A stretch of 64,000 bases of DNA, taken from the NCBI GenBank assembly GCA_003599535.1, contig QZKQ01000056.1, forward strand, positions 6,124 through 70,123, written 5' to 3'. Below, one piece after another: positions 2,612 to 48,212 of the stretch (position 1 is its first letter; every line of letters starts with the position of its first letter). The notes under the pieces are model-generated. The model saw only the letters and a list, made by a program, of their open reading frames with translations. It had not been told where the DNA came from and did not search any database. Both the position numbers and the translations under genes were made by a program. The stretch is from Candidatus Zixiibacteriota bacterium (GTDB lineage Bacteria > Electryoneota > B3-LCP).

Positions 2612-3001
2612 ATGCCCCTCCGCATCATCCGCCTCGGCACGCCGCGTATCAAAGATGAGGGCCTGCGCCTGGGCACGGTCCGCCGGCCGCCCCGGGGCGT
2701 GCCCAAAGCGCAGTTCGCGGCGCAGAACTGGTACGACGTCTGGTTCCCCACCCTGGCTCCCAGCGCCGAGACCGTGAAGCTCGGGCTGACGGCCCAAACC
2801 GAAGCCCAGTGGAGGGCCTACGCCCGCAAGTATAAGTCCGAGATGGCTCGGCCGGACGCCGCCCACGCCCTGGACCTGCTGGCCGCCCTGTCCCATACGG
2901 CCAACTTCTCCCTGGGCTGCTACTGCGAAGACGAGAGCCGTTGCCACCGCTCCATTCTGCGGGAACTGCTGATGGAACGGGGCGCCCGGATAGAGCGATA
3001 A
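2612..3001 (+). CDS. DUF488-family protein
   Basis: About 130 aa; IIRLGTPRIKDEGLRLGTVRRPPRGV...WFPTLAPS...F..GCYCEDESRCHRSIL matches the DUF488 pattern. Confidence 0.6.
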   Translation: MPLRIIRLGTPRIKDEGLRLGTVRRPPRGVPKAQFAAQNWYDVWFPTLAPSAETVKLGLTAQTEAQWRAYARKYKSEMARPDAAHALDLLAALSHTANFSLGCYCEDESRCHRSILRELLMERGARIER

Positions 3002-3022
3002 CGAGGTAAAGGCACGTGGGAA

Positions 3023-3592
3023 ATGGATATCGCCCTTAGTCTCATCGCCGGCATCTGCCTGGCGGCCGCGACCGGCTTCCGAGTGTTCGTTCCCCTGCTG
3101 GGGATGAGCATCGCGGTGCTGGCCGGCTGGATGACGCCCTCCCCCGGGTTCGAGTGGGTCGGTTCCGGACCGGCGCTGATCGCCTTCGCCACGGCCACTG
3201 CCGTCGAAATCGGGGCGTATTACATCCCCTGGCTGGATAATGCCCTGGACGCCGTGACCACGCCCCTGGCGGTCGCTGCCGGCGTGATGGCGGCCGCCGC
3301 GCTGATCGGCGATACTTCACCGCTGCTGAAATGGGTGTTGGCTATCATCGCGGGAGGCGGCGTATCCGGCATCGTCCAGGGCGGCACCGTGGCCTTGCGC
3401 GCCGCCTCCACCGGCGGCACGGGCGGGTTGACCAACCCGTTGATATCCACGCTGGAGCTGACCGGAGCCGTCATCATCACCATTCTCGCCATTGCATTAC
3501 CGGTCCTGGGTCTGGCCCTCGTCGTCTGGATCTGCTACAGGATGATCGCGTTCATGGGCAAAGCACCGCCGTTCAGGAAGCGGTCAACGTAA
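3023..3592 (+). CDS. DUF4126-family membrane protein
   Basis: Gly/Ala-rich TM segments (GFRVFVPLLGMSIAVLAGW, AGGGVSGIVQGG...) typical of DUF4126. Confidence 0.55.
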   Translation: MDIALSLIAGICLAAATGFRVFVPLLGMSIAVLAGWMTPSPGFEWVGSGPALIAFATATAVEIGAYYIPWLDNALDAVTTPLAVAAGVMAAAALIGDTSPLLKWVLAIIAGGGVSGIVQGGTVALRAASTGGTGGLTNPLISTLELTGAVIITILAIALPVLGLALVVWICYRMIAFMGKAPPFRKRST

Positions 3593-3655
3593 AAGCCAAA
3601 TCACGACCCATTCGCCGCCATGGAAGAGAAAGCGGGGTAACCGGGTCAGTTGTTT

Positions 3656-3690
3656 TAAAAGCTCCCTGAACTACTTTAGGGAGCTTTTTT
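3656..3690 (+). terminator. rho-independent terminator
   Basis: gctccctgaactactttagggagc hairpin followed by TTTTTT. Confidence 0.75.
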
Positions 3691-3728
3691 ATATTTATGA
3701 AAGTTATCGCATAATGAGTGAATATCAC

Positions 3729-3756
3729 TTGACAAACGCATGCGTCATTATGTAAT
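3729..3756 (+). promoter_or_regulatory. candidate sigma70-type promoter for the 3865 T9SS cargo gene
   Basis: TTGACA, a 16-nt spacer, then TGTAAT in an AT-rich intergenic stretch. Confidence 0.3.
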
Positions 3757-3864
3757 TTGATAATGCATGAGCGGGTCGCTGGGTAAGGGCGGCCCATCTC
3801 TGTTTGGGGGATTCACATTTCATCGAACGGCGCAAATAACGACTATACATACTTGGAGGTAGCG

Positions 3865-5700
3865 ATGAAAAATTGCTCCCCTTTATTAATCCTGGCCGCA
3901 TTGTGCCTGGACAGCCTTGCGGCCTTAGCCCAGCCGCCGGACACGCTTTGGACCCGATTCTACGGTCAACAGACTGAAAGCGAATTTTATTCCATAGCAA
4001 ATTGCGAACCGTATCGGACAGGTTATGTTTTGGGAGGCTACCTGCGTAGCGGCGCGTGGGATGGCTATATTTGGGTCGTCAAAATTGACTGCGACGGAGA
4101 TATCGAATGGGAGTTCGTCCGGACAATGCCCAGTTATTTTTCCGCATGCAGACAGGTGTTGCCCGTAGCGGATGGATATATTATTGTGGGCACAAGTGAC
4201 TATGGGGTCGGAAGTACCGATGGATACATAGGGAAGTTGAATCTAAGTGGTAATCTCCTTTGGGAGACGATATACACTACTACAATAGATAGTCTTGTTT
4301 TTAATTGCGTCACCGAAAGTCACACGGCAGGCTATACGGTTGGTGGTTATTATCGCGATTGGATAACTCCTGAATGGCACCTGGACGGTATCATGCATCA
4401 AGTCGCTGCCAATGGGGATAGCCTTTGGTCAACCATTTATGGTGCGCCCGGTTGGTATCACGAATTCCGGTCCATTCAAAAATCCACTGGCAACGGCTAT
4501 ATACTGGCAGGTGATATGGGATTTGGCGGACCGGCGAATATGCTGCTGGTGAAGATGGACATAAACGGCAATGTGTTATGGGATCAAGTTTACATCGTCA
4601 CCGACTACCAGTCGGCCAAGTCGGTCAAGCAAACGGCAGAAGGCGGGTACATTATGGCCGGTGATGCCAGGCCCGCTGGAAGTTCGTCGAATGCCTTCGT
4701 GGTGAAAACCGATTCTCTGGGTGAATTCGTATGGTGGCATGAATACAACAGCTACAGCGTGTGGAATGATATATGTGTGGAAATTACCCAGACGCCAGAG
4801 GGCGGCTATTTTCTGGCATGTAATGCCGATTCGGCGGACCTGGGCGGTTTCTATGCCGTGAAAATTGATGGCAATGGAGCGCAGCAATGGGACAGCCTGT
4901 ACACTTTTACTCCTTCGGATGTATGTAATGCCGGTATTCCCGCTAGTCCCTGGGGCAGCGGTTATATCATGGCCGGATCCGGTGAAAACAGCATTGGTTT
5001 AAAATCGGGTTACGTCGTGCGCCTGGGCAACGGATCCCAGATGGAGATGACCATCATCCCGGAGTACCCCCAGATCATCATCCCCCCCGGCGGCGGCAGC
5101 TTTAATTTCCAGATCTCCCTGACCAACCACGGCCAGACGGCCCAGTTGTTCGACGTCTGGACCGCCGGCATCAAGCCCAACGGGCAAACCACCGCGCCCA
5201 AGCTGGGCCCGATCTACAACTGCCAACTGGGGCCGGGCATGACCTGGACCAGCACCTTAAAGACGCAGAACGTTCCCGGGGCCGCCCCCCCGGGCACCTA
5301 TCAGTACGCCGGCTTTCTGGGGGATTACCCCGATACCGTGTACTCCAGCAACAGCTTCCCCGTGATCAAGATGGGCAGCGGATCGGATCAGTCTGGGGAT
5401 GATTGGGATCTTGCTGGGGCGGAGGCTGCGGTTCCCCCGGACAACTACAGCCTGGAAGTACACCCCAACCCCTTCAATGCTACAGCGCAGATCCGCTTCG
5501 CCCTGCCGCAGGAGGGCTGGACCCGGGTGGCGGTGTACGACGTCAACGGCCGGGAAGTGGCCCGCCTGTGGGACCGCTGGACGCCGCAGGGGTACTTCAC
5601 CGTCCCCTGGGAAGCATCAAATCTGCCCAGCGGCATCTACTTCGCCCGGCTGACCACCGGCGGACACAGCCAGTCGCTGAAACTGCTGCTGGTGAAGTAG
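3865..5700 (+). CDS. secreted beta-propeller-repeat protein with T9SS C-terminal sorting domain
   Basis: Signal peptide MKNCSPLLILAALCLDSLAALAQ with GGAGG RBS. Repeated GYILAGD/GYIMAGD-like blades. C-terminus VHPNPFNATAQIRFALPQEGWTRVAVYDVNGREVARLW...SGIYFARLTTGGHSQSLKLLLVK matches the Por_Secre_tail (T9SS CTD) pattern. The ORF-track start at 3853 is TTG; ATG at 3865 is preferred. Confidence 0.75.
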   Translation: MKNCSPLLILAALCLDSLAALAQPPDTLWTRFYGQQTESEFYSIANCEPYRTGYVLGGYLRSGAWDGYIWVVKIDCDGDIEWEFVRTMPSYFSACRQVLPVADGYIIVGTSDYGVGSTDGYIGKLNLSGNLLWETIYTTTIDSLVFNCVTESHTAGYTVGGYYRDWITPEWHLDGIMHQVAANGDSLWSTIYGAPGWYHEFRSIQKSTGNGYILAGDMGFGGPANMLLVKMDINGNVLWDQVYIVTDYQSAKSVKQTAEGGYIMAGDARPAGSSSNAFVVKTDSLGEFVWWHEYNSYSVWNDICVEITQTPEGGYFLACNADSADLGGFYAVKIDGNGAQQWDSLYTFTPSDVCNAGIPASPWGSGYIMAGSGENSIGLKSGYVVRLGNGSQMEMTIIPEYPQIIIPPGGGSFNFQISLTNHGQTAQLFDVWTAGIKPNGQTTAPKLGPIYNCQLGPGMTWTSTLKTQNVPGAAPPGTYQYAGFLGDYPDTVYSSNSFPVIKMGSGSDQSGDDWDLAGAEAAVPPDNYSLEVHPNPFNATAQIRFALPQEGWTRVAVYDVNGREVARLWDRWTPQGYFTVPWEASNLPSGIYFARLTTGGHSQSLKLLLVK

Positions 5701-7246: not shown

Positions 7247-8188
7247 ATGTTGACGCCCGAGCAAATGGTCAGCCTGCAGGCTGAAAGGCATTCCCTGGTA
7301 TTAGACGATCATATTCGCACGGAAGAAGAGTACGTGCTGCACCTGATTCATACCGCCGCCTATGCCCACGCCGCCCGCCTGGTCGAGGGGAAAAGGGTGC
7401 TGGACCTGGGGTGTAACACCGGCTACGGGTCGCAGATCCTGGCGCGGTCCGCCGCCCGGGTCACGGGAGTGGACGTGTCCGGCAAGGCTATCGCGCTGGC
7501 CCGGAAGCGTTACGCCGGACCCGGAATCGCTTTCCACGTGATTGACGGGATGCACTTGCCCTTCGAGGGCAGCGAGTTCGAGGTGGTGGTCAGCTTTCAG
7601 GTCATCGAGCACATCGCGGATCATGCCCGATACCTGGGCGAGCTGCGCCGGGTCCTGGCGCCCGAGGGCTTGGCAGTTTTTACCACGCCCAATGCCCGGC
7701 TGCGGCTGGCCCCCGGCATGAAGCCGTGGAACGAATTCCACGTCCGCGAATTCGATCATGCCGAGCTCGCGGAGCTGCTGGTCGGCTACTTCCCGCACGT
7801 GGAAGTCTACGGCTTGTTCGCTCCGGAGCCGGTCTACGCCCTGGAAGCCGGCCGCCTGCAACGGGCGCGGGAGACGGCCCAGAAGGCTCAGATGCGCGGC
7901 GCCGCCGGATCCCGTCTCCAGGCCTGGAAAGCCGGAATCAAACGCCTCCTGCCCGCCGCGGCCCTGGCCCAGATCCATCGGGCGCGACGGCGCTTCGTGG
8001 TCCGCTCCGCCGGCAGTCTGGAGGCTTTCCGCGCGGCCTACGGGGTGGAGGCGCTGTTCTACCGGGAGGACAGCCTGGAGGCGGCGCTGGACCTGATGGC
8101 CGTATGCGGCGACAGTGAAGCGGCGCTGCGTCAGGCCCGGGAACGGCTGGCGGTGGAAACGGAATTGGATGAACGATTGCAGGCATAA
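7247..8188 (+). CDS. class I SAM-dependent methyltransferase
   Basis: VLDLGCNTGYGSQILA (motif I) and downstream acidic motif; GGAGG RBS. Confidence 0.75.
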   Translation: MLTPEQMVSLQAERHSLVLDDHIRTEEEYVLHLIHTAAYAHAARLVEGKRVLDLGCNTGYGSQILARSAARVTGVDVSGKAIALARKRYAGPGIAFHVIDGMHLPFEGSEFEVVVSFQVIEHIADHARYLGELRRVLAPEGLAVFTTPNARLRLAPGMKPWNEFHVREFDHAELAELLVGYFPHVEVYGLFAPEPVYALEAGRLQRARETAQKAQMRGAAGSRLQAWKAGIKRLLPAAALAQIHRARRRFVVRSAGSLEAFRAAYGVEALFYREDSLEAALDLMAVCGDSEAALRQARERLAVETELDERLQA

Positions 8189-8704: not shown

Positions 8705-8906
8705 AAATTGGGAAGATCGGACATTAGAGCCTATCCGAATAACTCTCACCCAGGTGTCATTCCCGCAAGCGAAATGCAGTGAAGCGCGTCGGGAATCGGA
8801 CGGGATGAGGCGATTGCGAACGCGGGTGAAAACCCTTGCCGGTATGACCGGTTATTCGGATAGGTTCTTAGCCATGAGAGCTATCCGTCAAAACCTGAGG
8901 AATGCC

Positions 8907-10412
8907 ATGATCAGACTGTCGTCGTTGCTGGCTGTCTTCGGTATTGGCCTGATGATCATCAGTCCGCTCTTGCTGCTTTGGCATCCTGACTGGATGTCGT
9001 TTCAATCCATCCTGGCCTCCGACGGTATGTTTGACGGCTTTATCCTATATGGCCTCAAAGGATTGCCGCTGGGATTACTCTTGGCCGGATCATTCCTGGT
9101 TCTGGCCAGTGTGGTAGTGTACATCATGGAGCGCAAAGCCGGGAAACTGCTGGAATACAGCACGAGGACATTTTTAACGGCGTTGATCATCATCAAGATG
9201 TGTCTGTGTCTGATAACCATCGGTGTCACTCCCTATAACATTGGCAAGTATGATGCCTACTCCAATTTCCATTACGCCAAGAACCTGGCGGAGGGTGAAC
9301 CGGTGGTGTCACCCGAAGGCCGGCCCACCGCCTGGTGGCCCATCGGATACCCGCTGCTGCTTAGCCTGTTTTTCCGTATCCTTGGGGTAAAAGTATGGGT
9401 GGCGCAGGTCATTAACGCCGGCATTCTGACGTTGACGATGGTGTTGACTTTCTACTGGGTTCGAGACTTGATGGGAATCCGAATCGCGCAAAAGGCCGCA
9501 CTGGTGTTGACCCTGCTTCCCTCCCAGACTTTCTATGCCGTCCCCTTAATGTCCGACATGTTCTTCGGATTGTTGCTGCTGGCTTTGCTCTGGGTAATCA
9601 CCAAAAAAGCCACCGGATACAATGCGTCACTGGCCGGGCTGCTTCTGGGCCTGGCGATGCTGACGCGTCCCACCCTATTATTTTTCCCCTTGGTACTACT
9701 CCTGTACCGCCTGGTAAGAGACAAGGATTGGAAGAGAGCCCTGGTCCATGCCGTCATCATCATCCTGGCCGCCGAAGCCGTGTTGTTGCCCTGGCAAATT
9801 CGGAATTACCGGCTGTTCCACCAGTTCGTACTCGTTTCAACCAATGGGGGGCATCATCTGTGGATGGGAAATAATCCGCAGGCCCGAGGCGGGTTCTTAC
9901 CCGTGGAATGGCACGCGACGAGACAACAGTTGAAATACATGAGCACGCTTTCGGAGGCTGAAGCGGATCGCTACGCTTTGCGACAAGGGTTGAATTATAT
10001 AGCGCAGCATCCCCTCCAAGCCATTCAGGTATGGCCCAAAAAATTGTTTTACCTGCTCTTCAAAGACAGCCGGTCTGTGGCGACGGCGATCGCGGATACT
10101 CACATTAAGATAGCCCCGGCCGTAATCATTGGAATGCTGGGGGCCACCGAAGGATTCTATACGGCGGTGCTGCTCTGTTTCTTCCTTTCCTGGGTGGCGC
10201 TGATACGCAGGGAGAGGGCCTCGCCGCGGAATGTCCTCCTTAGCGGCACCGTGCTTTACTTTCTGATGATCACGGTGGCCTTCATCGCCGAAGGGCGATA
10301 CCACCAGCCGTTGGTACCGATCTTCGTGCTGTTGGCGGTATGGAATCCATCCACCCCGAGCGAAGAGCAGGCCGCGGCCGCCGGCCTTGAATCCGTTCAC
10401 CCGGCAGCGTGA
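8907..10412 (+). CDS. GT39/ArnT-like membrane glycosyltransferase (PMT_2 family)
   Basis: About 500-aa polytopic membrane protein. GYPLLLSLFFRILG...LTLTMVLTFYWVRDLMG...FYAVPLMSDMFFGLLLLALLWV is consistent with phospholipid-carrier-dependent glycosyltransferases. Start at 8907 has RBS gaggaa; the ORF is open from 8754. Confidence 0.55.
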   Translation: MIRLSSLLAVFGIGLMIISPLLLLWHPDWMSFQSILASDGMFDGFILYGLKGLPLGLLLAGSFLVLASVVVYIMERKAGKLLEYSTRTFLTALIIIKMCLCLITIGVTPYNIGKYDAYSNFHYAKNLAEGEPVVSPEGRPTAWWPIGYPLLLSLFFRILGVKVWVAQVINAGILTLTMVLTFYWVRDLMGIRIAQKAALVLTLLPSQTFYAVPLMSDMFFGLLLLALLWVITKKATGYNASLAGLLLGLAMLTRPTLLFFPLVLLLYRLVRDKDWKRALVHAVIIILAAEAVLLPWQIRNYRLFHQFVLVSTNGGHHLWMGNNPQARGGFLPVEWHATRQQLKYMSTLSEAEADRYALRQGLNYIAQHPLQAIQVWPKKLFYLLFKDSRSVATAIADTHIKIAPAVIIGMLGATEGFYTAVLLCFFLSWVALIRRERASPRNVLLSGTVLYFLMITVAFIAEGRYHQPLVPIFVLLAVWNPSTPSEEQAAAAGLESVHPAA

Positions 10413-10994: not shown

Positions 10995-12062
10995 ATGAAC
11001 CTTTCAGATCTCGGCTTTGACGCGTGGTTCCGGGACAGGCTGTCTTCGGAAGTCCAAGCCGGCCATTCCCTGGCCCGCGTCACGGCCGTCAACCGCGACA
11101 ACTGCCTGATCCGGAACGAAACTTCCGAAGTTCCGGCCGAAATGACCGGCCGCCTGCTGTACTCGACCGAATCCACCCTGGACCTGCCCGTGGTGGGGGA
11201 CTGGGTCCTGGCGGACTACTTCGACGATGGAGGCGGTGCTGTCATTCACGCGGTGCTGCCGCGCAAATCCTTCCTGCGGCGCAAAACCGCCGGCAAGAAG
11301 GTGGATTACCAGATGATCGCCGCCAATCTCGACGCTGCCTTCATCACGCAGGCGTGCACCCAGGATTTCAACCTGCACCGGCTGGAGCGTTACCTGGTCA
11401 TGGTCCACGAAGGGCGGGTCGAACCGGTCGTGCTGCTGACCAAGGCCGATCTGGTCAGCCCCGAGGAGCTGGAGAGCCGCCTGGCCACGGTGTGCGCCCT
11501 GGATTCCTCCGGCCGCGTCCTGGCCGTCAGCAACGTCACGGGCTATGGCCTGGACCTGTTGCGGCAGATGCTCGAGCCGGGTAAAACCTACGGCCTGCTG
11601 GGCTCGTCCGGAGTGGGCAAGTCCACGCTCATCAACCGCCTGGCCGGCCGCGATCTCCTGGCCACCGGCGCCGTCCGGGATTTCGACGGGAAGGGCCGCC
11701 ACACCACTTCCCGCCGTGAACTGATCGTCCTGGACGGCGGCGCCATGCTGGTTGATACCCCCGGCATGAAGGTACTGGGCAACATGGACGCCGGGGAAGG
11801 CCTGGAGGCGACCTTCGCTGATCTCCACGCCCTGGCCGCGGACTGCCGCTTCGACGATTGCACCCACACCCGCGAGTCCGGCTGCGCGCTGCTGGCGGCG
11901 GTCCGGTCCGGGCAGGTGGACGAGGACCGCTACCAGGGCTACCTGAAGCTGCTGAAGGAAGGGGAATTCAACCAGTTGTCCTACGCCGGCAGGCGCAAGA
12001 AGGATCGCGACTTCGGCCGCTTCATCAAGATCGCCAAGAAAGATCTGAAGGCGAGGCGGTGA
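10995..12062 (+). CDS. rsgA: ribosome small-subunit-dependent GTPase A
   Basis: Circularly permuted GTPase motifs (GLLGSSGVGKSTLINRL; DTPGM) and C-terminal zinc finger CRFDDCTHTRESGCAL. Confidence 0.85.
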   Translation: MNLSDLGFDAWFRDRLSSEVQAGHSLARVTAVNRDNCLIRNETSEVPAEMTGRLLYSTESTLDLPVVGDWVLADYFDDGGGAVIHAVLPRKSFLRRKTAGKKVDYQMIAANLDAAFITQACTQDFNLHRLERYLVMVHEGRVEPVVLLTKADLVSPEELESRLATVCALDSSGRVLAVSNVTGYGLDLLRQMLEPGKTYGLLGSSGVGKSTLINRLAGRDLLATGAVRDFDGKGRHTTSRRELIVLDGGAMLVDTPGMKVLGNMDAGEGLEATFADLHALAADCRFDDCTHTRESGCALLAAVRSGQVDEDRYQGYLKLLKEGEFNQLSYAGRRKKDRDFGRFIKIAKKDLKARR

Positions 12063-12099
12063 GAGCCGCATAGGCAGAATGTCGGCCCAACGGAGGTGG

Positions 12100-12345
12100 C
12101 TGTGTCGGGGCGATGCATTTGCCGCGATGAGGCCTCGAATGCCGATGGGGCCGCCAATCCCTGCAGAGGCCGGCATCACAGGAATTGGAGGGCAAATGCT
12201 TCGCCCTGAAGGGAGGTGGCTCGGCTTGGATAAGGGCGAAGCATCTGCGCAACGGGTAAACGATGCAGCCATTGGCTGGAGATGATACTCTGGTAAGAGT
12301 CAGCGGCCTCTTCCGGGCAGATGCATCGCCCCTACGCGACGATCC
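12100..12345. repeat. interspersed structured repeat element, copy A (4 alternating ~17-bp units)
   Basis: Units ggggcgatgcatttgcc (12107), gggcaaatgcttcgccc (12190), gggcgaagcatctgcgca (12234) and ggcagatgcatcgcccc (12316). The same four-unit order recurs inverted at 42280-42520 and partly at 60427-60533. Confidence 0.7.
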
Positions 12346-12428
12346 CCCGGCCTCTTCCCAGGAATGCCACGCAGTGGTCCCTGCCACGCGGTGGCCACTT
12401 CGTGGCGGGAAATTCCTGGGCTACGATC

Positions 12429-13328
12429 ATGCTACCCACTGAAGTGGGTGCAATTAAAATATCCGCCATGCAAGGTAATTTCACCGCCGACCCCGGCCTG
12501 TACGAGGCCCTGTTTGACCTCCTGGACCTCGTCTTCCCCGGCCTCCGGCAGGGGGCGCAGGAGATCCGTCGCCTGGGAATCGCCTGGGAAGCCGTCTCCA
12601 CCCCCTTCGTGCATTTCGAGCACGGGAAAGTGGTGTCCCACGTGGGGGTCATTGAACTGCCCCTGGTGGCGATGGGCCGTCCCGTGACCGTCGGATCGGT
12701 GCACGCCGTGGCCACCCACCCGGATTACCGCCGCCGCGGCTATTACGACCGGCGGATGCGCGAACTGCTGGAGTACGCCTCCGGCCGCTGGGAGGCGCTG
12801 ATTCTCACCACCGAGCACCCCGAGTACTTCACCCCGTTCGGTTTCCGGCACGTCCCCGAGCAATGTTTTTTCCAGCCGGTCAACCTCGGCCGCAGCGACC
12901 GGTTGCGCCCCTTGAACCTCCGGGATTCCGCCGATGTTGTGCTCCTGCACCGCCTGCTGGACACCCGCGAACCGGTCTCCCAGGTGGTCGGGGTCGGCCC
13001 GGAGAAGGCGGTGTTCTGCTTCAACGAGGCCCGCCGCCCGCTGTACTATGCGGAAAGCCTGGATGCCCTTATCTGCCTGGAGCGGGAGGATTCGGCTTTG
13101 CACCTGTACGACATCGTAACCCCGCACCTGCCCGCCCTGCAGGACCTAGCGGCCGTGCTGCCGGGGGCAAACGAGCTCATCTTTCACTTCGCTCCGGACC
13201 GTTTCGCCCCTCAGGCCCGCGCCGTTCCCTACCTGCTGGATCACGACGGCCCCTCGTACCTGATGGTGCGCGGGCCGCTCGCGGCGGAAGGGGAGGCGTT
13301 CACGCTGCCGAGAGGGGCGAGGACGTGA
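12429..13328 (+). CDS. GNAT-family N-acetyltransferase (two-domain, Eis-like)
   Basis: HAVATHPDYRRRGYYDRRMRELLEYA resembles the acetyl-CoA-binding motif. The start is uncertain, since the ORF is open from 12321. Confidence 0.5.
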   Translation: MLPTEVGAIKISAMQGNFTADPGLYEALFDLLDLVFPGLRQGAQEIRRLGIAWEAVSTPFVHFEHGKVVSHVGVIELPLVAMGRPVTVGSVHAVATHPDYRRRGYYDRRMRELLEYASGRWEALILTTEHPEYFTPFGFRHVPEQCFFQPVNLGRSDRLRPLNLRDSADVVLLHRLLDTREPVSQVVGVGPEKAVFCFNEARRPLYYAESLDALICLEREDSALHLYDIVTPHLPALQDLAAVLPGANELIFHFAPDRFAPQARAVPYLLDHDGPSYLMVRGPLAAEGEAFTLPRGART

Positions 13329-13371
13329 GGAAGTGGGAAGGGGGTTTGGAAAGAAAAAGAAGAAATAACGC

Positions 13372-13400
13372 TTGATCTGCGTGAATATTTGCACTATTAT
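13372..13400 (+). promoter_or_regulatory. sigma70-like promoter of the TIR fusion gene
   Basis: TTGATC (13372-13377), a 17-nt spacer, TATTAT (13395-13400). RBS GGGAGGA lies just before the ATG at 13484. Confidence 0.45.
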
Positions 13401-13483
13401 AAAATTAAGTAGCCGGACTTATACTTACATCCGCTGGGATAAGTGGAGGCGCCGGCATCGCAATCAGCAGGGAGGATCCGATT

Positions 13484-16483
13484 ATGCATTTGCACTTGGA
13501 AAAATCCGTATGGATGGATGCGCGTGAGACACTATCTTTGGATGCGATTATGCATCAAGCCACCACTTCACTCATCATTTCTGGTCATACACTGTATAAA
13601 TTTGCTTCCGATTTATATGTTAAGAACGCTCTGGTTGATCTTTTGGCGCGCAATGTACGAGTTACTCTGGTTCTCTTGAATCCATATTCCAGCTACAGCT
13701 ATGCCCATAGACCCTTTCACGATCTGGAAAGCCAGGGCGTACCGTATAAGAGCCAGATGCATAAAACCATCGATTTTGTTCATGAAATCTCCACCAGTTT
13801 AGGTCATCCCCAGACTTTCAATGTGTACTTGACACAATACATGCCAAGATTCCGTACCATCCTCATTGATGACAGTATTTGCCATGTTCAATTGTACATG
13901 TACGGCAAGGACGTCAGCCTCACGCCGGAATTAGTCATCACCGAACAAAGTCAGACTCCCTGGTTTGGAGTTATTCGGGATTCTTTACAGGAAATGTTAA
14001 AATCCGTTGATGTCATTCCGTTAATAAAAGACGGAAGATACAATGAGAACTGGGATAACAGCCAAATTGCCGACGGGCTCAAAAAATGCCTGCATACCAA
14101 GTGTTGCCGGGATCAACGTAATTTTTGGAGCACCATTGAAACCATAATTCTTGGTTATCAGAATAATCCCCAGCGAAGAAATGAAAATGGTCTGTATGAT
14201 GAGGACTACACACCCGGGACATTCACCCTGGACTGTATCTCCCCCGCCACTCAATATATTAACCCTCGGATGAGCTTCGATAGGTGGCTCGACAGAGTCC
14301 TCGATGATGAGATAGCCCTGATAAAGGCACATCAAGCCGAACTGTTTTATAGATACTCTGAATCTGACCTGCGCGTGGACGTGCGACGGGTTCTGGATCT
14401 ATGCCGCATCGATGGCAATCCTTTAAAATGTAATATCTGGCTACAGGAGTACTCCGATATCATCAGGCGAATACTATTTACCTTGCTGGTAAACAATCCT
14501 GATCATGAACTGAATACCTGTCCGCAGTTGACGCATGAGCGACAAGAATTGATCATTGATGCCATTAATTGGTTGGAGAAAAATCGCCAGCCATCCATCA
14601 AACAATGGTTACACCTCTCCATTGCGGCAGGTTTGCTGGGGATCAATGAAAAATCCACCCATGCCGCTACCTCTTCCATCGAGCATCACGGAGCGATAGT
14701 CCTTGAACGACCTGGGGAATCACGGGCGGAGGCGATTTCCAGGGTGGGACAGGATCTGTGGGAAACGGCCAATAGTAATTGCCGAATCGACGCTTCCGAT
14801 TTTTTCTTGAACGTTTTAAGCTCAGCATACGGTAACTTTAAACTCGCGGTATTCTTGGATGATTTCCTGGAGTCGGTGGTCGCCTTGAAGTATTATCAGG
14901 AGCTGCTAAGAATGTATCCCAGCCTGGAAATTGATTGTATACCAAGATCCATTCGCTGTGGCAACGACGCGACATTTGATGACCTGCAGATACTACTGCC
15001 ACGGTTTCCCGACCTGGCAAGATCGAACCGCTTTCGCATCGTTGAAAAAGGCCCTAAAATCGGGGGCGTCAACCTGCTGAAGATCCACCCTGAGGTTACT
15101 CAGGTGATAGATCAGGCTTCGGCTTTGGACGTGCGGGGAGCCAGGAACTATGAAATGATGCAGGGAATTATGAAGGAAGCCTATTTTGGATTCATGGTGT
15201 GCCGTGAAATCAGCGAATCCGTTACCGGGCTTTTTGCGCCGGATCGTCCCCTGATCTATATCCATCATACACCCGGGGAACGATCTTTTGATGGGTTTAA
15301 ACTCCGGCATGAACGCAACCAAAACGGGCGTATGCTGGCCAAAACTACTGTGAACGATCAGAAGGAAAAATGGGGAGGAGGTTCGGGATGGCTATTGCAC
15401 CATCAATCGGATAACTACCGTAATCGATACCAGATTTTAAGCTCATTTTACAGCCAGCAAGCCCCGAATTTTCATGCCAAGTTCGGCGCACTGCTGGAAT
15501 CAGAGGTCGAAGGATTTCTGGATAAGCTAAATGGGCGGGTCCTGGTAATAGGTTGTGGTTCCGGCAAGGAGGTGGAATATCTGCGACAGAAAGGCCGTGA
15601 CGTTTGGGGATTCGATTTCAGTCCGGATGCCATCGCCTTGGCGCGGCAGAGAAATATTCATCTGAAGAATCGGTTCTTCGTCGAGGATTTGTACAATATT
15701 GACACAATTATGCAAGGAGAATTCGATGGGATCGTGGCCAACGCGGTATTATTGCATCTCCTGGACCGCGATCATTTGGTCATGATCCTGGAGAAGATAC
15801 GGGCGCGATTGAAACCCTCTGGCCTCTGTTTTGTGCGGAATCTAGACAAGGAGGGGGGTGTAAAAGAGGAATTTGATAGTCGTCTTTATTACCAAGACCG
15901 GTGGTTTGTTTACTACACTGAAGATGAGCTGACGCAAGCAGCGCGAAGGGCTGGATTCTCCATACTTGATCGCGTACGTCACCGCCACGCGGTGCATAAG
16001 GGGGTATACTGGCTATCATTATTGCTGAAAAACGGGACGATTACCCGGTTCAATTCTCTACCGATCGATACTGAAAATGAATGGGACATCTTTCTAGGTT
16101 ACGCCAGCGCTGATACCGCCGAGCTGGCCCAGGAAGTTTACATCCAATTAACGGAACAGACTTTTCACGTTTTCTTTGCCCCTTCGGCGGTCAAAACAGG
16201 AACAGAACTTCCAGTTAAGGTCTCGCAGGCCCTCAATCACTGCCGGTATTTCGTTGCCCTGATTTCTCCGGAATACGAAAGATCAGGCTGGTGTAAATTG
16301 GAACTGAACCAGAGGGTCACCCGAGATACAAATAGCGATACCCCCACAATTTTGCCATTTCTGATCGGGGGAGCGGAGATACCATCGGTGATATCGCACC
16401 TTGCTTATAAAGAATTCCCCAATAGTCAGACCAGCGCTTCGCGAATAGTCCAAGAAATTCTGGGAAAGATCAATAAAGAGTAA
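13484..16483 (+). CDS. 999-aa multidomain protein: unknown N-domain + DUF89/ARMT1-like + class I SAM methyltransferase + C-terminal TIR domain
   Basis: TIR hallmarks at the C-terminus (WDIFLGYASADTAEL...HCRYFVALISPEYERSGWCKLELN with conserved Glu). MTase motif I VLVIGCGSGKEVEYL. DUF89-like motifs LAVFLDDFLESVVALKYY and VRGARNYEMMQG. The coding region is markedly AT-rich compared with its neighbours. Confidence 0.85.
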   Translation: MHLHLEKSVWMDARETLSLDAIMHQATTSLIISGHTLYKFASDLYVKNALVDLLARNVRVTLVLLNPYSSYSYAHRPFHDLESQGVPYKSQMHKTIDFVHEISTSLGHPQTFNVYLTQYMPRFRTILIDDSICHVQLYMYGKDVSLTPELVITEQSQTPWFGVIRDSLQEMLKSVDVIPLIKDGRYNENWDNSQIADGLKKCLHTKCCRDQRNFWSTIETIILGYQNNPQRRNENGLYDEDYTPGTFTLDCISPATQYINPRMSFDRWLDRVLDDEIALIKAHQAELFYRYSESDLRVDVRRVLDLCRIDGNPLKCNIWLQEYSDIIRRILFTLLVNNPDHELNTCPQLTHERQELIIDAINWLEKNRQPSIKQWLHLSIAAGLLGINEKSTHAATSSIEHHGAIVLERPGESRAEAISRVGQDLWETANSNCRIDASDFFLNVLSSAYGNFKLAVFLDDFLESVVALKYYQELLRMYPSLEIDCIPRSIRCGNDATFDDLQILLPRFPDLARSNRFRIVEKGPKIGGVNLLKIHPEVTQVIDQASALDVRGARNYEMMQGIMKEAYFGFMVCREISESVTGLFAPDRPLIYIHHTPGERSFDGFKLRHERNQNGRMLAKTTVNDQKEKWGGGSGWLLHHQSDNYRNRYQILSSFYSQQAPNFHAKFGALLESEVEGFLDKLNGRVLVIGCGSGKEVEYLRQKGRDVWGFDFSPDAIALARQRNIHLKNRFFVEDLYNIDTIMQGEFDGIVANAVLLHLLDRDHLVMILEKIRARLKPSGLCFVRNLDKEGGVKEEFDSRLYYQDRWFVYYTEDELTQAARRAGFSILDRVRHRHAVHKGVYWLSLLLKNGTITRFNSLPIDTENEWDIFLGYASADTAELAQEVYIQLTEQTFHVFFAPSAVKTGTELPVKVSQALNHCRYFVALISPEYERSGWCKLELNQRVTRDTNSDTPTILPFLIGGAEIPSVISHLAYKEFPNSQTSASRIVQEILGKINKE

Positions 16484-16744
16484 TTTTATATACCTGAATG
16501 CGATAATGCTTGATTATTCGCCATATTCCGGTCGCTGGACCGCTGTATGTTTTGGTCAAAGTGAACGGATCCTGACTTGTTAATCACTGGCCACCCTATG
16601 GGATCATTACCTGATGAAACCCGCTATCCCCTGGATCGCCAACCAGCATCCGACACTTTCCCCCGGAGCCTCCCATGCCTTGCCTCCAGCTCCACACCCT
16701 CGCCGCCACCCGTCAACGCGTTGAATGAAACCACTGGAAATCCC

Positions 16745-17158
16745 ATGGATAATTCCGCTCTAAAAGCCCTTATCTGGCGCACCGTCCAGGCCCTGAACCG
16801 CACCTGGACCCGCGATCCCGAAGCCCGCGGTCTGGAACAGTACTTCCACCCCGGCATGGTAGCCATCACTCCCGCCGACCGCCTGCGCCTGGAGAGCGGC
16901 GAGGCCTGCCTGGCCGGATGGCGCAAGTTCGCCCGGGAATTTGAGGTGCTCCGCTGGGAGGAGAAAGACCCCGATGTGCGTTTCCACTGCGAGGGCCGCT
17001 GCGCCGTGGTGACCTACTACTACGGCTGCGAAATCCGCCTGCGCGGCGGCGGCCCCACCCTGGAAGTTCCCGGCCGGGATATGCTCGTTTTAGTCCTGGA
17101 GCAGGACCGCTGGCTGGTCGTGGCGGATCAGTTTTCGGGATTTCCCGGTCAGGGATAA
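16745..17158 (+). CDS. SnoaL-like / NTF2-fold (DUF4440-like) protein
   Basis: About 137 aa with the NTF2-like pattern (WTRDPEARGLEQYFHPGMVAITP...VTYYYGCEIRLRGGGPTLEVPGRDMLVLVLEQDRWLVV). The upstream in-frame region 16577-16744 looks non-coding. Confidence 0.5.
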   Translation: MDNSALKALIWRTVQALNRTWTRDPEARGLEQYFHPGMVAITPADRLRLESGEACLAGWRKFAREFEVLRWEEKDPDVRFHCEGRCAVVTYYYGCEIRLRGGGPTLEVPGRDMLVLVLEQDRWLVVADQFSGFPGQG

Positions 17159-17178
17159 CCTGCCCGTTCCAACCCGAG

Positions 17179-17625
17179 ATGATCATGTCGCTTTTCCACC
17201 GTTTGCTGCTGCTGGGCGGGATCTTCAGCCTGGCACTGGCGCTGTTTCAGGCGGTGATCTCGGTGTCGCCGGCCTGGAGCGTGTACTTCGGGGCGCCCGC
17301 CTCCATGGCCGCCCAGCCGCTCAAGCTGCTGGCCGCTGGCTGGATCGCCGCCCTGTTCTTCGCCCTGTTCGGCCTGTATGGCTTAAGCGCCGCGGGACGG
17401 TTCCGCCGCCTGCCGCTGCTGCGCTGGGGAATTCTGGCCATCGGGCTCCTCTACTTCCTGCGCGGAGTGATGGTGTTCCCGCAACTGGGCTCCGAAGGGA
17501 TGCCGGACCGGTTCATCGTCTATTCGGCGGTCTCCCTGGCCGCCGGGATCATCCACCTGGCCGGAGTGGCGGGCGCCTGGCGGACCATCCCCGGGAAGCA
17601 GAGCCGTGAGCCGCGCGCGGCGTAG
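17179..17625 (+). CDS. small polytopic membrane protein, hypothetical
   Basis: Four hydrophobic helices and a Gly/Ala/Leu-rich composition. Confidence 0.45.
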   Translation: MIMSLFHRLLLLGGIFSLALALFQAVISVSPAWSVYFGAPASMAAQPLKLLAAGWIAALFFALFGLYGLSAAGRFRRLPLLRWGILAIGLLYFLRGVMVFPQLGSEGMPDRFIVYSAVSLAAGIIHLAGVAGAWRTIPGKQSREPRAA

Positions 17626-17715
17626 CGCCGGGCCGAGTGCCTGGCCGAATCAATCCCCTCTGTGCCACTGCGTCCATCTGCGGTGAAAATGCCTCATTCT
17701 CCGGATTCGTCACCC

Positions 17716-18183
17716 ATGACCGACCCACTCGTCGAAACCTGGCTGATCAACCACCGCGTCAACCTGCGCCTGCTGGATAATTTGAGCGACGAAGCCCTGG
17801 CCGCCACCTTGTCCACCCGTGGCGGGCGCAGCGTGGGGATGCAACTGGCCCATGTGCACAATAACCGCCTCTACCACCTGGAAAACGCCGATAAGGAGCT
17901 CTACGGTACATTGGCCCTGATCCCCCGCGAGCAGGGGAACGACCGGGCCGCGCTGGCCGCCGGCCTGGTGGCTTCCGGCGAGGCCGTGGCCGAGCTGATC
18001 CGCCGCTGTCTGGCGGCGGGCGGGCAGATGAAGGGCTTCAAGCGCGGCCTCGTGGTTTTCACCGGCTACCTGATCGCCCACGAGGCCCACCACCGCGGCC
18101 ATGCCCTGCTGACGGTCAAGCAGTCCGGCCTGAAGATCCCCGAGGCGCTGAAATGGGGGTCATGGGAATGGAATAAAATTTGA
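17716..18183 (+). CDS. DinB-family (DinB_2) protein
   Basis: MQLAHVHNNRLYHL and HEAHHRGHALL His motifs. Alternative starts exist at 17662 and 17689. Confidence 0.6.
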   Translation: MTDPLVETWLINHRVNLRLLDNLSDEALAATLSTRGGRSVGMQLAHVHNNRLYHLENADKELYGTLALIPREQGNDRAALAAGLVASGEAVAELIRRCLAAGGQMKGFKRGLVVFTGYLIAHEAHHRGHALLTVKQSGLKIPEALKWGSWEWNKI

Positions 18184-18276
18184 TCCGGCAACATACCAGC
18201 GCCGGCACCCGCTGCCTCCCGGGTTGGTGCCTTCGCCTTCACCGGTAATTCAATCATGTTCTTAGGGGAGGTCCCC

Positions 18277-18594
18277 ATGGCACCACGTCCTTACGATTTC
18301 AGCGATGAAACCAAGAAGGCCGCCATCGAACGGCAAGGCGGCGTCTGTGCCTGGTGCGGCGAAGAGATTTCCACCGACTGGTCTGATGGCCCCTATGATG
18401 GCGTTGCTCATCATTTAAAGCCTGGAATTCACGGTGGTAGAAATGACTTGGATAATTGCGTCTATGTGTGTCGCGCCCATCATATGCATCCTTGTCACGG
18501 CATGGCCCCCTATGGCATCGATCCCCAAGGGGGCAGTTCCGACACGTGGGTGAGACTGTCCCGGAGCGATTTCCAGTACTGGAAGAAGTCCTGA
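18277..18594 (+). CDS. HNH endonuclease-domain protein
   Basis: CAWCG...HHLKPGIHGGRNDLDNCVYVCRAHH, a C-x2-C...H-H...N...C-x3-C HNH/His-Me finger pattern. RBS aggggagg. Confidence 0.6.
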   Translation: MAPRPYDFSDETKKAAIERQGGVCAWCGEEISTDWSDGPYDGVAHHLKPGIHGGRNDLDNCVYVCRAHHMHPCHGMAPYGIDPQGGSSDTWVRLSRSDFQYWKKS

Positions 18595-46235: not shown

Positions 46236-48212
46236 TTACTTGAGTAAAACCACCTTCTGCACCTGCGTAAAGTCGCCCGCCTCCAGCCTCACGAAATACG
46301 CCCCCGCCGCCAGCCCCGAGGCGTCAAACGTCAGCTCGTGATTTCCCGCCTCCCGCCAGCCGTCCACCAGCGTTCTGACTTCGCGGCCGGCGGTGTCGTA
46401 GACTTTCAGTCGGATGTGGCCGGCAGCCGGGAGCGTGAAGCCCAGAGCCGTCAGCGGATTAAAAGGGTTGGGCGAGGGCGGCAGCAGGCGGCACTCCTGC
46501 GGCAGCGGCGCGCCGAAGGCCGTGGCGGTGGGGGATTGCCAGTTGAGGAGGGTGCCTGAGGAATACTTGATGGTAACGTAGTCTTCATTTGTCCCCATCC
46601 CGTTACTGCTTCCTGTCACATAAATATTACCGGCTATATCGACATGAAGTCCACCCAATCCGTGATCGACAGCGTTGGCAGGTCCATTGTAACCCGCCAC
46701 CCACATCTGGACTCCGTTAAGGTTGTACTTGATTGTGGTAATATCGCCGTAACTGGATCCCATGACTATTACGTTGCCGCCATCGTCCAAAGCGAGCTTA
46801 TAGCCATAGTCATCAATTGCTCCTGGCCCACTGTAGTATGCCACCCACTGCTCCACGCCATAAGGATCGTACTTAATGGTGGCACAATCGTCGTTATAAA
46901 CAAAAATCTGAGTAAACCCGGTAATATATACATTACCAGCCCCGTCCACAGCCAAATCAAAAGCTTGATCAACCGCATCACCAAGACCATTAAATATCGC
47001 AATCCACTGTTGAATGCCGGCAGAGTCATATTTAATCGTAACATAATCCCAACTTGTCAAGCTTCCATAGCTGGTTCCAGTCACATAAATATTGTCCTCA
47101 GCATCCAATACTAAACTGCGAGCGCAATCTTCATAATTCCCTGATCCGTTATGCCGTGCCACCCATATCTGGTCACCTGACGAATTGTATTTAATGGTAG
47201 CGCAATCATCCGATGTTCCGACTCCATTGCTTTCCCCTGTGACATAAATATCGCCGTCACTGCCTGAGGCTAAACTGTAGGCACGATCGTTGTTAGATGC
47301 AGGGCCATCGTATCTTGCGGCCCATTGCTGGTTTCCCGTAGAATCATACTTGACAGTAGTATAATCTTCGTCACCGCCGATTCCACAACTATACCCAGTC
47401 ACGTATACATTGCCGTCATCATCAATGATAATAGCCACGGCAATATCATGTGAATTTCCAGGCCCATTGTAACGCGCAAGCCACTGACGGACCCCAGAAG
47501 AGTCGTATTTTATTGTGGCATAATCATAGTTTGATCCATTCCCGTAACTTCCACCTGTCACATAGACATTCCCCTGTTCGTCACATGCTAAATCATAGGC
47601 TTCGTCGTCATCATTGCCTGGCCCATTATATTGCGCAATCCACTGCTGGATTCCTGAAGAACTATATTTGATGGTCATATAATCATAGGATGATCCGTTT
47701 CCAGTACAGTAGCCTGTCACGAAGAGATTATCTGAATCATCCGCAACAATATTAGTGGACCAATCTTCGTAGTTTCCCATTCCGTTAAACCGCGCCGTCC
47801 ATTCCTGAATGACTCCTCCCGTCAGCATCTGCTTCTGGAACTGCAGCGTGTCCCCCGCCCAGACGGCGCCGGGGTGCAGCCCCACGTAGGCGCGCAGGGT
47901 GTAGTAGCCCACCGGCGACCCCTGCGTCAGCGGCACACTGCGTTCCCAAGTCATGGTTTCCCCCGCCTGGAAGGTCTGCGTCACCGGCCCAGGCGAGGGC
48001 CCGGCGCTGCCGCTGGGCCGGGAGCTCGTGCCCCAGATATCGGCGCTGATGGTCGGCCCCAGGTTGGTGACGGACAGGCGGTAGGAAAACGTGCCGCCGC
48101 TGTCGGGCAGGACTAGCGGCGTGAGTGGGGTCAGCTCGACGGTGAAGGGTTGGTTCCAACCCGCTGACGGCAGGAGCAGGAGAACCAGGGCGATAAGGGC
48201 GAGGCTTCGCAT
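46236..48212 (-). CDS. secreted SBBP beta-propeller-repeat protein with T9SS C-terminal sorting domain
   Basis: Signal peptide and more than 8 SBBP-like repeats (YNGPGN..D.A.....D..GNVYVTG.S.G.G...DY.TIKYDS.G...W). C-terminus ...AGAYFVRLEAGDFTQVQKVVLLK. Confidence 0.8.
   Translation of the reverse strand: MRSLALIALVLLLLPSAGWNQPFTVELTPLTPLVLPDSGGTFSYRLSVTNLGPTISADIWGTSSRPSGSAGPSPGPVTQTFQAGETMTWERSVPLTQGSPVGYYTLRAYVGLHPGAVWAGDTLQFQKQMLTGGVIQEWTARFNGMGNYEDWSTNIVADDSDNLFVTGYCTGNGSSYDYMTIKYSSSGIQQWIAQYNGPGNDDDEAYDLACDEQGNVYVTGGSYGNGSNYDYATIKYDSSGVRQWLARYNGPGNSHDIAVAIIIDDDGNVYVTGYSCGIGGDEDYTTVKYDSTGNQQWAARYDGPASNNDRAYSLASGSDGDIYVTGESNGVGTSDDCATIKYNSSGDQIWVARHNGSGNYEDCARSLVLDAEDNIYVTGTSYGSLTSWDYVTIKYDSAGIQQWIAIFNGLGDAVDQAFDLAVDGAGNVYITGFTQIFVYNDDCATIKYDPYGVEQWVAYYSGPGAIDDYGYKLALDDGGNVIVMGSSYGDITTIKYNLNGVQMWVAGYNGPANAVDHGLGGLHVDIAGNIYVTGSSNGMGTNEDYVTIKYSSGTLLNWQSPTATAFGAPLPQECRLLPPSPNPFNPLTALGFTLPAAGHIRLKVYDTAGREVRTLVDGWREAGNHELTFDASGLAAGAYFVRLEAGDFTQVQKVVLLK

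Follow-up and report, generated by a model that had tools for sequence, protein, structure and literature searches.

A putative TIR-effector immune gene with a pseudo-PLD, DUF89 and methyltransferase core in a low-GC island of a Zixiibacteriota genome

TIR domains of the effector type are expected to cleave nicotinamide adenine dinucleotide (NAD+) in an oligomerisation-dependent manner. Together with PNPase, calcineurin-like phosphoesterase, trypsin (with Trypco1) and EAD modules, TIR domains constitute a recurrent repertoire of counter-invader effectors (PMC7159879, PMC8195603). The DUF89 enzymes characterised to date are housekeeping damage-control phosphatases (PMC9062747). Here we analyse a gene that joins a TIR domain and a DUF89 domain in one polypeptide, located in a 64-kb stretch of DNA (64,000 nucleotides, hereafter the window) from contig QZKQ01000056.1 of a Candidatus Zixiibacteriota bacterium. 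The open reading frame (ORF; 13484–16483, forward strand, from an ATG start to a TAA stop, stop included) encodes 999 amino acids arranged as a phospholipase D (PLD)-like domain, a DUF89 domain, a methyltransferase (MTase) and a TIR domain; NCBI lists an identical protein (P0001) among the annotations of a metagenome-assembled genome of Candidatus Zixiibacteriota. Judging from its sequence, it would be an immune protein in which a TIR effector is attached to a core not described before, and we lean, without great assurance, towards regarding the gene as a horizontally acquired, self-contained immune gene of the abortive-infection type that represents a previously undescribed family. A preliminary description of the locus had reported a single ORF of this length in an AT-rich island, and all peptide motifs quoted there are indeed present in the translation.

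The TIR domain occupies residues 864–990 (16073–16453, forward strand). The Pfam model TIR_2 matches residues 869–981 with 61 bits (E = 2.1e-16), well above its curated cut-off of 28, and TIR NADases represented in the PDB match the domain at E = 6e-10 to 1e-6. The putative catalytic glutamate, E940 (codon GAA, 16301–16303, forward strand), lies in the motif SGWCKLEL, which the alignment with PDB TIR sequences places in register with the glutamate of SKWCLMEL in L6, DWTNYEL in AbTIR and NWTEYEL in 7uxr. The TIR domains of the homologues hold an equivalent S-x-W-V-x-x-E, i.e. the catalytic-type glutamate is retained across the family. The TIR domain with its glutamate, as previously described, is thus confirmed, and by profile and glutamate it belongs to the NADase-competent class and is a putative NADase. 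The NCBIfam retron-TIR model matches the domain at E = 8e-14, and a PADLOC scan of the protein places its TIR closest to the models PDC-S66 and RT-TIR_XII, the ThsB models scoring E = 5e-4 to 0.016; at the level of sequence, effector-type TIRs are closer to the domain than ThsB is. The matches of the TIR to PDC-S66 and of the MTase to mad2 concern individual domains and were not taken as membership in the respective systems.

The TIR domain is preceded by a class I S-adenosylmethionine (SAM)-dependent MTase (residues 666–849; 15479–16030, forward strand) with the motifs G690-x-G692-x-G694 and D711. This assignment, too, agrees with the preliminary one, as the Pfam model Methyltransf_23 passes its curated threshold over residues 676–828 (E = 2.4e-18). 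The SAM-binding motifs are conserved in the family (GxGxG in 30–31 of 31 sequences, D711 in 30 of 30), and the best matches in the PDB are small-molecule MTases, the closest being phosphoethanolamine MTase, TehB and TPMT.

A complete DUF89/ARMT1-like domain spans residues 237–661 (14192–15466, forward strand) and bears the motifs D459-D460, N494-D495-A-T and R551-G-A-R-N-Y-E557. Both the fold and the motifs of the domain, proposed earlier, hold, though its profile scores in the window protein stay below the curated thresholds: PF01937 yields 16.3 bits against a cut-off of 25 (E = 0.006) and NCBIfam NF040824 yields 21 bits against 440 (E = 2e-4). PF01937 reaches E < 1e-3 in 25 of 39 close homologues and E = 4.7e-20 in distant relatives of the same core. 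Because the profile match is marginal, the assignment leaned on fold comparison. When the whole-length profile is compared with PDB sequences, matches to the MTase and TIR domains swamp the rest; a family profile restricted to DUF89 gives a marginal match to 2g8l (E = 0.069), with all three motifs in register (DD with DN, NDAT with NDAT, RGARNYE with KGQGNFE), and the window protein has the DUF89 fold. The metal and nucleophile positions defined for the fission-yeast Duf8901 (Asp248, Asn249 and Asp286; PMC9062747) are occupied by D459-D460 and N494-D495, with DD replacing DN. These residues are kept in nearly all close homologues (D459 in 36/39, D460 in 39/39, N494 and D495 in 38/39 each), and the stretch R551–E557 is nearly invariant.

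The N-terminal region, described before as possibly PLD-like but lacking the HKD motif, turns out to have a fold of the PLD superfamily (residues 16–185; 13529–14038, forward strand) from which HxK is indeed absent. Its invariant block reads Y119-x-P-R122-F-R124-x4-D129-x11-G141-x-D143, and its elements follow in the order strand, turn, strand, loop. Pfam PLDc_2 matches the domain at E = 0.19 only and the HKD motif is missing, so we regard it as a PLD-like fold and do not predict it to be a PLD enzyme. Motif spacing and strand order suggest that the block R122-F-R124-x4-D129-x11-G141-x-D143 may correspond to HxKx4D...GSxN of the enzymes, with arginine replacing both histidine and lysine. A profile of the PLD-like domain searched against PDB sequences gave chance matches only and reached no solved PLD enzyme. 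The domain is followed by a cysteine-rich helical linker (residues 186–236; 14039–14191, forward strand), modelled with lower confidence (predicted local distance difference test 58–66), in which C202, C207 and W215 are conserved; the linker also occurs in relatives devoid of the PLD-like domain.

A search of 5.8 billion proteins returned 43 clusters, nearly all of them metagenomic singletons, and the DUF89 core, used as a profile in an exhaustive search, retrieved 323 representatives at E ≤ 1e-3, of which 133 reach E ≤ 1e-30; domains were tallied in 187 retrieved proteins with domain scans and custom hidden Markov models. The family is patchily distributed among Zixibacteria, Aminicenantes, Acidobacteria and Omnitrophota, its core of PLD-like domain, DUF89 and MTase being 42–59% identical among close members. 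All 47 proteins bearing the PLD-like domain also carry an effector segment, which adjoins that domain, mostly on its N-terminal side. In 34 of the 47 this segment is a TIR domain, which occurs in none of the 140 relatives without the PLD-like domain (Fisher p = 6e-27). In the same position, about eight proteins have a hydrophobic two-helix membrane segment, P0005 has Trypsin_2, P0019 has PNP_UDP_1 and P0020 a calcineurin-like metallophosphatase; P0015 combines an N-terminal TIR with a C-terminal metallophosphatase, and the TIR of P0052 is ThsB-like. An N-terminal PLD-like domain with the extra module placed at the C-terminus is found only in the window protein and in P0002, its closest relative (59% identity), which ends in EAD7 where the window protein has its TIR. 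The window protein is the sole one of the 187 with a C-terminal TIR, and this TIR is only 21–26% identical to the N-terminal TIRs of the homologues, which share 27–60% identity among themselves; it was acquired independently and did not arise by circular permutation. The core itself varies as well, the MTase being absent from P0025, P0031 and P0035–39 and DUF89 from P0040–43 (TIR-PLD-MTase). Among relatives of the DUF89 core, plain enzymes of 450–500 amino acids form the majority. In the cluster of P0077, one 57.7-kb ENA contig encodes a 338-aa TIR-PLD protein (P0183) and a 576-aa DUF89-MTase protein (P0184), which appear to derive from the 980-aa fusion P0077/P0185 through natural splitting or else a frameshift. 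A giant protein of 6,726 amino acids (P0126) carries the same DUF89-like core at residues 2185–2500.

Whether homologues reside in defence islands had been raised as a question, to which the answer is divided: several do, but others are lone insertions among housekeeping genes. P0015 is surrounded by genes for a type IIG restriction-modification-like MTase, GmrSD, AbiEii and a PIN protein. The trypsin variant P0005 is accompanied by an overlapping Trypco1 gene and by BrxC/D-like, Cas4-like and N6/N4-MTase genes, and P0020 by HNH, GT4-conflict and MalT-type STAND genes; P0025 neighbours a NACHT-HEAT protein, and AbiH lies near P0033. The lone insertions lie between an NTP-transferase gene and pgk, between galT and galK, and beside an ABC transporter. 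In PADLOC, 47 models matched among 111 ORFs flanking effector-bearing homologues and 201 among 94 ORFs flanking effector-less DUF89-MTase homologues, the latter number indicating that enzymes without an effector are likewise found in the company of defence genes. Downstream of the MTase-less P0025, the same locus (L006, 13434–17223) encodes the NACHT-HEAT protein and a Metallophos_2 protein, along with an ARMT1-like (DUF89) protein as a gene of its own.

In some loci (numbered with the prefix L) a TIR protein is encoded separately from an effector-less DUF89-MTase gene. In L033, a 473-aa TIR protein (2962–4380), matching the PADLOC model TIR-TM at E = 2e-90, is encoded 128 nt upstream of such a gene; no membrane helix is predicted in this protein despite the match. 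We considered it as an exact split version of the fusion, since its C-terminal half looks PLD-like by eye, but rejected this candidate in view of an hhalign E of 0.34 over 24 columns. L040/L041 encodes a 285-aa TIR protein (12947–13801 of L040, equivalent to 2285–3139 of L041) two ORFs downstream of a DUF89-MTase gene, and this protein matches the TIR profile of the window protein's family at E = 8e-31. The DUF89-MTase homologue of L040 (10001–12018; JAEPEX010000115.1, 3.5 Mb) is 49% identical by tblastn and is interrupted by stop codons in all three frames, so it may be a pseudogene or reflect an assembly problem; its GC content is 43.8% compared with 52.8% for the locus.

A more elaborate arrangement occurs in L054 (5732–15493), where a divergent TIR-PLD-DUF89-MTase gene lies within a string of overlapping genes, with a 939-aa HEAT-like gene and an extra MTase upstream and a GT4-conflict glycosyltransferase and an AIRS/PurM-like gene downstream, the whole string being flanked by genes for a DNA methylase, PRTase-CE, an ORC-CDC6-like protein, a group II intron reverse transcriptase and transposases. 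Orthologues of the GT4-conflict and AIRS genes (33% and 30% identity) stand either side of an effector-less DUF89-MTase gene in L035 (4125–9589), and a second glycosyltransferase is common to L005 and L035 (55% identity). The gene set possibly represents a form of the system that comprises several genes; the GT4/AIRS trio, missing from the window, was encountered in only 2–3 of some 25 loci. The HEAT-like protein of L054 is weakly similar to the NACHT-HEAT protein of L006 (E = 2e-13).

Concerning the origin of the window gene, the island (about 13335–16590, as delimited by a GC scan) consists of this one gene with short flanks and has a GC content of 47.0% compared with 64.5% in the remainder of the window, a strong deviation that had been slightly overstated as 45% in 67%. 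The sliding-window check proposed earlier identifies it as the lowest 3-kb stretch of the window (minimum 0.472; mean 0.638, standard deviation 0.05), and within the ORF GC is 47.3% overall and 52% at third codon positions (GC3), while GC3 of the five nearest genes is 72–89%. The GC drop begins a few bases past the stop of a GNAT gene (13328) and ends at about 16577–16600, a DUF4440 ORF starting at 16577; the AT-rich run quoted in the preliminary description lies at 13596–13624. Homologues likewise have a lower GC content than their own flanks in four of five contigs (48.9 vs 54.6, 38.4 vs 50.5, 49.3 vs 60.7 and 58.6 vs 63.5%). From this contrast in GC and GC3, the composition of the homologues, the insertion between galT and galK and the patchy spread of the family we infer that the TIR gene was acquired by horizontal transfer; the foreign composition claimed before is real, but the transfer cannot be dated as recent. 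A scan anchored on the upstream RsgA gene covered 185,579 species genomes; the relatives that it recovered were all from other phyla and 50–61% identical, hence no locus comparable enough for an empty-site test. The gene order of the locus recurs on an independent JGI contig.

Taken together, effector exchange and the defence-island neighbours of homologues provide circumstantial support for a role in conflict or defence, which we consider likely. In the abortive-infection model that we favour, the core of PLD-like domain, DUF89 and MTase would be the sensing and regulating part, although that it is primarily a sensor is a tentative proposal to which we give a little less than even weight. The pseudo-PLD domain would serve as a non-catalytic adaptor that binds an anion or other ligand and that is coupled to, and controls, the effector; such an adaptor is likely because an arginine pair replaces the catalytic histidine and lysine and because the closest structural relatives are ligand-sensing or inert. 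DUF89 and the MTase would probably have as ligand or substrate a small phosphorylated molecule, presumably nucleotide-like, the level of which shifts upon infection, a nucleotide being hinted at by distant relatives of the DUF89 core that are fused to HIT/DcpS_C and guanylate kinase. Their activity could set the threshold of the trigger or stand as an activity of its own. Once triggered, the protein would self-associate and bring its TIR domains together as an active NADase relying on E940, and NAD+ depletion would halt the infected cell ahead of phage release. The TIR would thereby be a toxic output of the same kind as the modules found in its place in orthologues (membrane, protease, PNP and phosphoesterase), and that it depletes NAD+ and does not generate a signal appears somewhat the more probable option.

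Several observations weigh against this model. The 140 relatives with a DUF89(-MTase) core and no effector imply that the core has an enzymatic job independent of effectors, and the catalytic motifs are intact in both DUF89 and the MTase, which is unusual in a pure sensor. The effector-less homologues are richer in PADLOC matches than the effector-bearing ones, so they are not a valid control and provide no background rate. Among 2.9 million viral contigs, none yielded a relative. The neighbours of the TIR gene in the window are non-defence genes, and of the features of a genomic island the locus exhibits the atypical composition without mobility signatures: no integrase or other mobility gene occurs near the island, there is no tRNA in the window, and no meaningful direct or inverted repeats occur at the island borders, as the preliminary description had already noted for integrase, tRNA and direct repeats. 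The correspondence between HxK and RxR is drawn from spacing and strand order, with no profile link to solved PLD enzymes. Finally, the TIR could be a signal generator instead of an NAD+ depleter.

The last point leads to an explanation suggested in the preliminary description, according to which the protein is a self-contained device that produces and processes an NAD-derived signal. Here the TIR would make a nucleotide signal from NAD, DUF89 and the MTase would process this signal chemically, and its reading would fall to the PLD-like domain or to some other protein. The complete active-site and cofactor motifs of DUF89 and the MTase would fit such a device, as would the nucleotide-processing nature of three of the alternative domains (PNP, metallophosphatase and TIR), the nucleotide substrates hinted at by the HIT/DcpS_C and guanylate kinase fusions, and the Thoeris-like two-gene layout of L033 and L040/L041. 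However, orthologous cores bear a membrane segment, a trypsin-like protease or the EAD7 adaptor in place of the TIR, and TIR-PLD proteins exist that lack DUF89 (P0040–43) or the MTase (P0025, P0031, P0035–37), so an interchangeable toxic effector fits better than an obligatory signal generator. With a TIR closer to the effector type than to ThsB and no receptor or effector gene adjacent in the window, we consider this explanation improbable. A further, plausible reading gives the DUF89-MTase core itself the leading antiviral or toxic role: as a pair of enzymes modifying small molecules or nucleotides, it would degrade or change a metabolite that the invader requires, or synthesise an inhibitory one, with the TIR or other domain as an added second effector. 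At some loci, a GT4 glycosyltransferase and an ATP-dependent enzyme of the PurM-like type would extend the pair. Conserved catalytic motifs, the kinship of the MTase with small-molecule MTases (phosphoethanolamine MTase, TehB, TPMT) and the defence genes around effector-less homologues are consistent with this, and so are the orthologous GT4-conflict and AIRS/PurM-like pairs flanking the core in L054 and L035 (with overlapping frames in L054) and the second glycosyltransferase of L005 and L035. Yet the trio was seen at few loci and is missing from the window, members that lack the MTase or DUF89 retain the PLD-like domain and the effector, and characterised DUF89 enzymes are housekeeping ones (PMC9062747), which leaves a primary role of the core doubtful to a comparable extent.

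It is also conceivable, albeit least probable of all, that the gene is not an immune gene but a laterally transferred metabolic enzyme, a damage-control phosphatase fused to an MTase, in which the TIR serves as a protein-interaction or NAD-linked regulatory module. The ordinary neighbours in the window, the lone insertions of several homologues amid housekeeping genes, the prevalence of plain 450–500-aa enzymes among relatives and the lack of relatives on viral contigs would all accord with a metabolic role. It is difficult to reconcile with the canonical conflict-system effectors at the variable position, including EAD7 and trypsin with Trypco1 (PMC7159879, PMC8195603), with the catalytic-type glutamate kept in the TIRs across the family, and with the defence islands around several homologues and the strong compositional foreignness in several hosts. 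Returning to the favoured immune role, a more specific and rather unlikely version of it would see a portable cassette of effector and pseudo-PLD wired to a DUF89 phosphatase and a SAM-dependent MTase (in some loci also to the GT4 and PurM-like enzymes) that make, destroy or monitor a small phosphorylated, methylatable infection cue or antiviral product, in a pathway unrelated to cyclic oligonucleotides or cyclic ADP-ribose (cADPR) isomers.

As for other features of the window, a GGGAGG Shine-Dalgarno-like run (CAGGGAGGATCCGATTATG; 13468–13473, forward strand) lies 9–10 nt before the ATG, in keeping with the ribosome-binding site reported earlier. The promoter described there as near-consensus is not supported: the sigma-70-like hexamers TTGATC-17-TATTAT are present (13372–13400, forward strand) but match at 9 of 12 positions, and such sites are as common in shuffled sequence as here (5 found, 5.0 expected), so the promoter is not established. 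A weak terminator-like hairpin with a 5-bp stem and a T-rich tail (16529–16552, forward strand), 46 nt past the stop, is likewise not significant (1 found, 3.5 expected in shuffles), and no Rfam family matches in 12000–18000. The neighbouring genes encode RsgA, the GNAT and DUF4440 proteins, a membrane protein, DinB and a small ORF of 112 amino acids with an HNH motif (Pfam HNH, E = 2.6e-4; 18256–18594, forward strand), 1.8 kb downstream of the TIR gene. The second low-GC stretch of the window is milder (0.51–0.55) and contains a 552-aa PMT_2-type glycosyltransferase ORF (8754–10412, forward strand) preceded by a class I MTase (7247–8188) and a DinB_2-like ORF, and a third (3-kb GC about 0.54) contains a 657-aa protein with SBBP beta-propeller repeats and a Por_Secre_tail domain for sorting by the type IX secretion system (46236–48212, reverse strand).

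Provided that the gene has an immune function, it extends the TIR-based defences that bacteria, plants and animals have in common with a new kind of sensing or enzymatic core, and the widespread and poorly understood DUF89 "damage-control" phosphatases gain a role in immunity, which would be the first for DUF89 should the cassette reading prove true. On the same premise, it also defines a pseudo-PLD domain with the behaviour of a universal adaptor, to which toxic effectors are joined. That the enzyme sites are conserved points to a small molecule as trigger or product, one amenable to biochemical identification, and the gene, alone and 3 kb long, lends itself readily to testing and might find use as a ligand-triggered NADase switch.

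How, then, does the protein compare with described systems? Like the STAND, Avs and bNACHT proteins and the conflict systems of Kaur et al. 2020/2021 (PMC7159879, PMC8195603), members of its family unite a core and an interchangeable effector in one protein. They draw on the same repertoire of TIR, PNPase, calcineurin-like phosphoesterase, trypsin (with Trypco1), EAD and membrane segments, and both spread laterally in a patchy manner, often in defence islands. The exchange of effectors on orthologous cores, characteristic of those systems, thus applies here, but the NTPase core does not: the family has no NTPase/STAND, vWA-MoxR or GTPase component, and its core consists of the pseudo-PLD, DUF89 and SAM-dependent MTase domains. 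Pfam and NCBIfam scans detected no NTPase (STAND, MoxR, GTPase) or reverse transcriptase domain in the window protein, and DUF89/ARMT1 is mentioned nowhere in the two papers. With effector TIR NADases, such as the retron type XII RT-TIR, TIR-SAVED and TIR-STING of CBASS (systems of anti-phage signalling based on cyclic oligonucleotides) and AbTIR, the window protein shares a TIR_2-type domain and the conserved glutamate. The likeness is confined to the TIR; the window protein lacks a reverse transcriptase, non-coding RNA and a SAVED or STING sensor and no cyclase or partner gene is adjacent; the retron type XII model matched over its TIR part alone (positions 334–459 of 464), so the protein is not a member. 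The family has in common with Thoeris a TIR in a probable anti-phage context, and the layout of L033 and L040/L041 recalls ThsB with its effector, but the window holds a single gene with GNAT and DUF4440 neighbours and no SLOG, Macro or SIR2 receptor-effector, and does not belong to Thoeris either. Lacking an NTPase, a reverse transcriptase with its non-coding RNA, SAVED/STING and a ThsA-type partner, the protein is thus a member of none of the systems compared. No MTase, phosphatase, DUF89 or PLD partner is named in the systematic survey of TIR signalling systems from 2025, and a full-text literature search found no paper that links DUF89/ARMT1 to TIR or phage defence, in accordance with the earlier impression that the architecture is undescribed.

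The domains of the core have relatives of their own. Those closest in structure to the pseudo-PLD domain are the non-catalytic PLD folds, i.e. the sugar-binding domain of TrmB, DUF1669 of FAM83 and Pfam DUF5919 (which occurs in no paper of the full-text search), all ligand-sensing or inert. The window domain differs from them in having no significant sequence relationship to any solved member, in its own RxR...D...G-x-D block and in being always joined to an immune-type effector. The DUF89 domain is 13% identical to the DUF89/ARMT1 phosphatases (PH1575, 2g8l; AF1104, 2ffj; At2g17340; yeast YMR027W; S. pombe Duf89/Duf8901), from which it is distinguished by DD in place of DN, RGARNYE in place of KGxxN[YF]E and about 100 additional residues, and, in contrast to these enzymes, it is fused to a PLD-like domain, an MTase and an effector in a context that is of the conflict type and not housekeeping.

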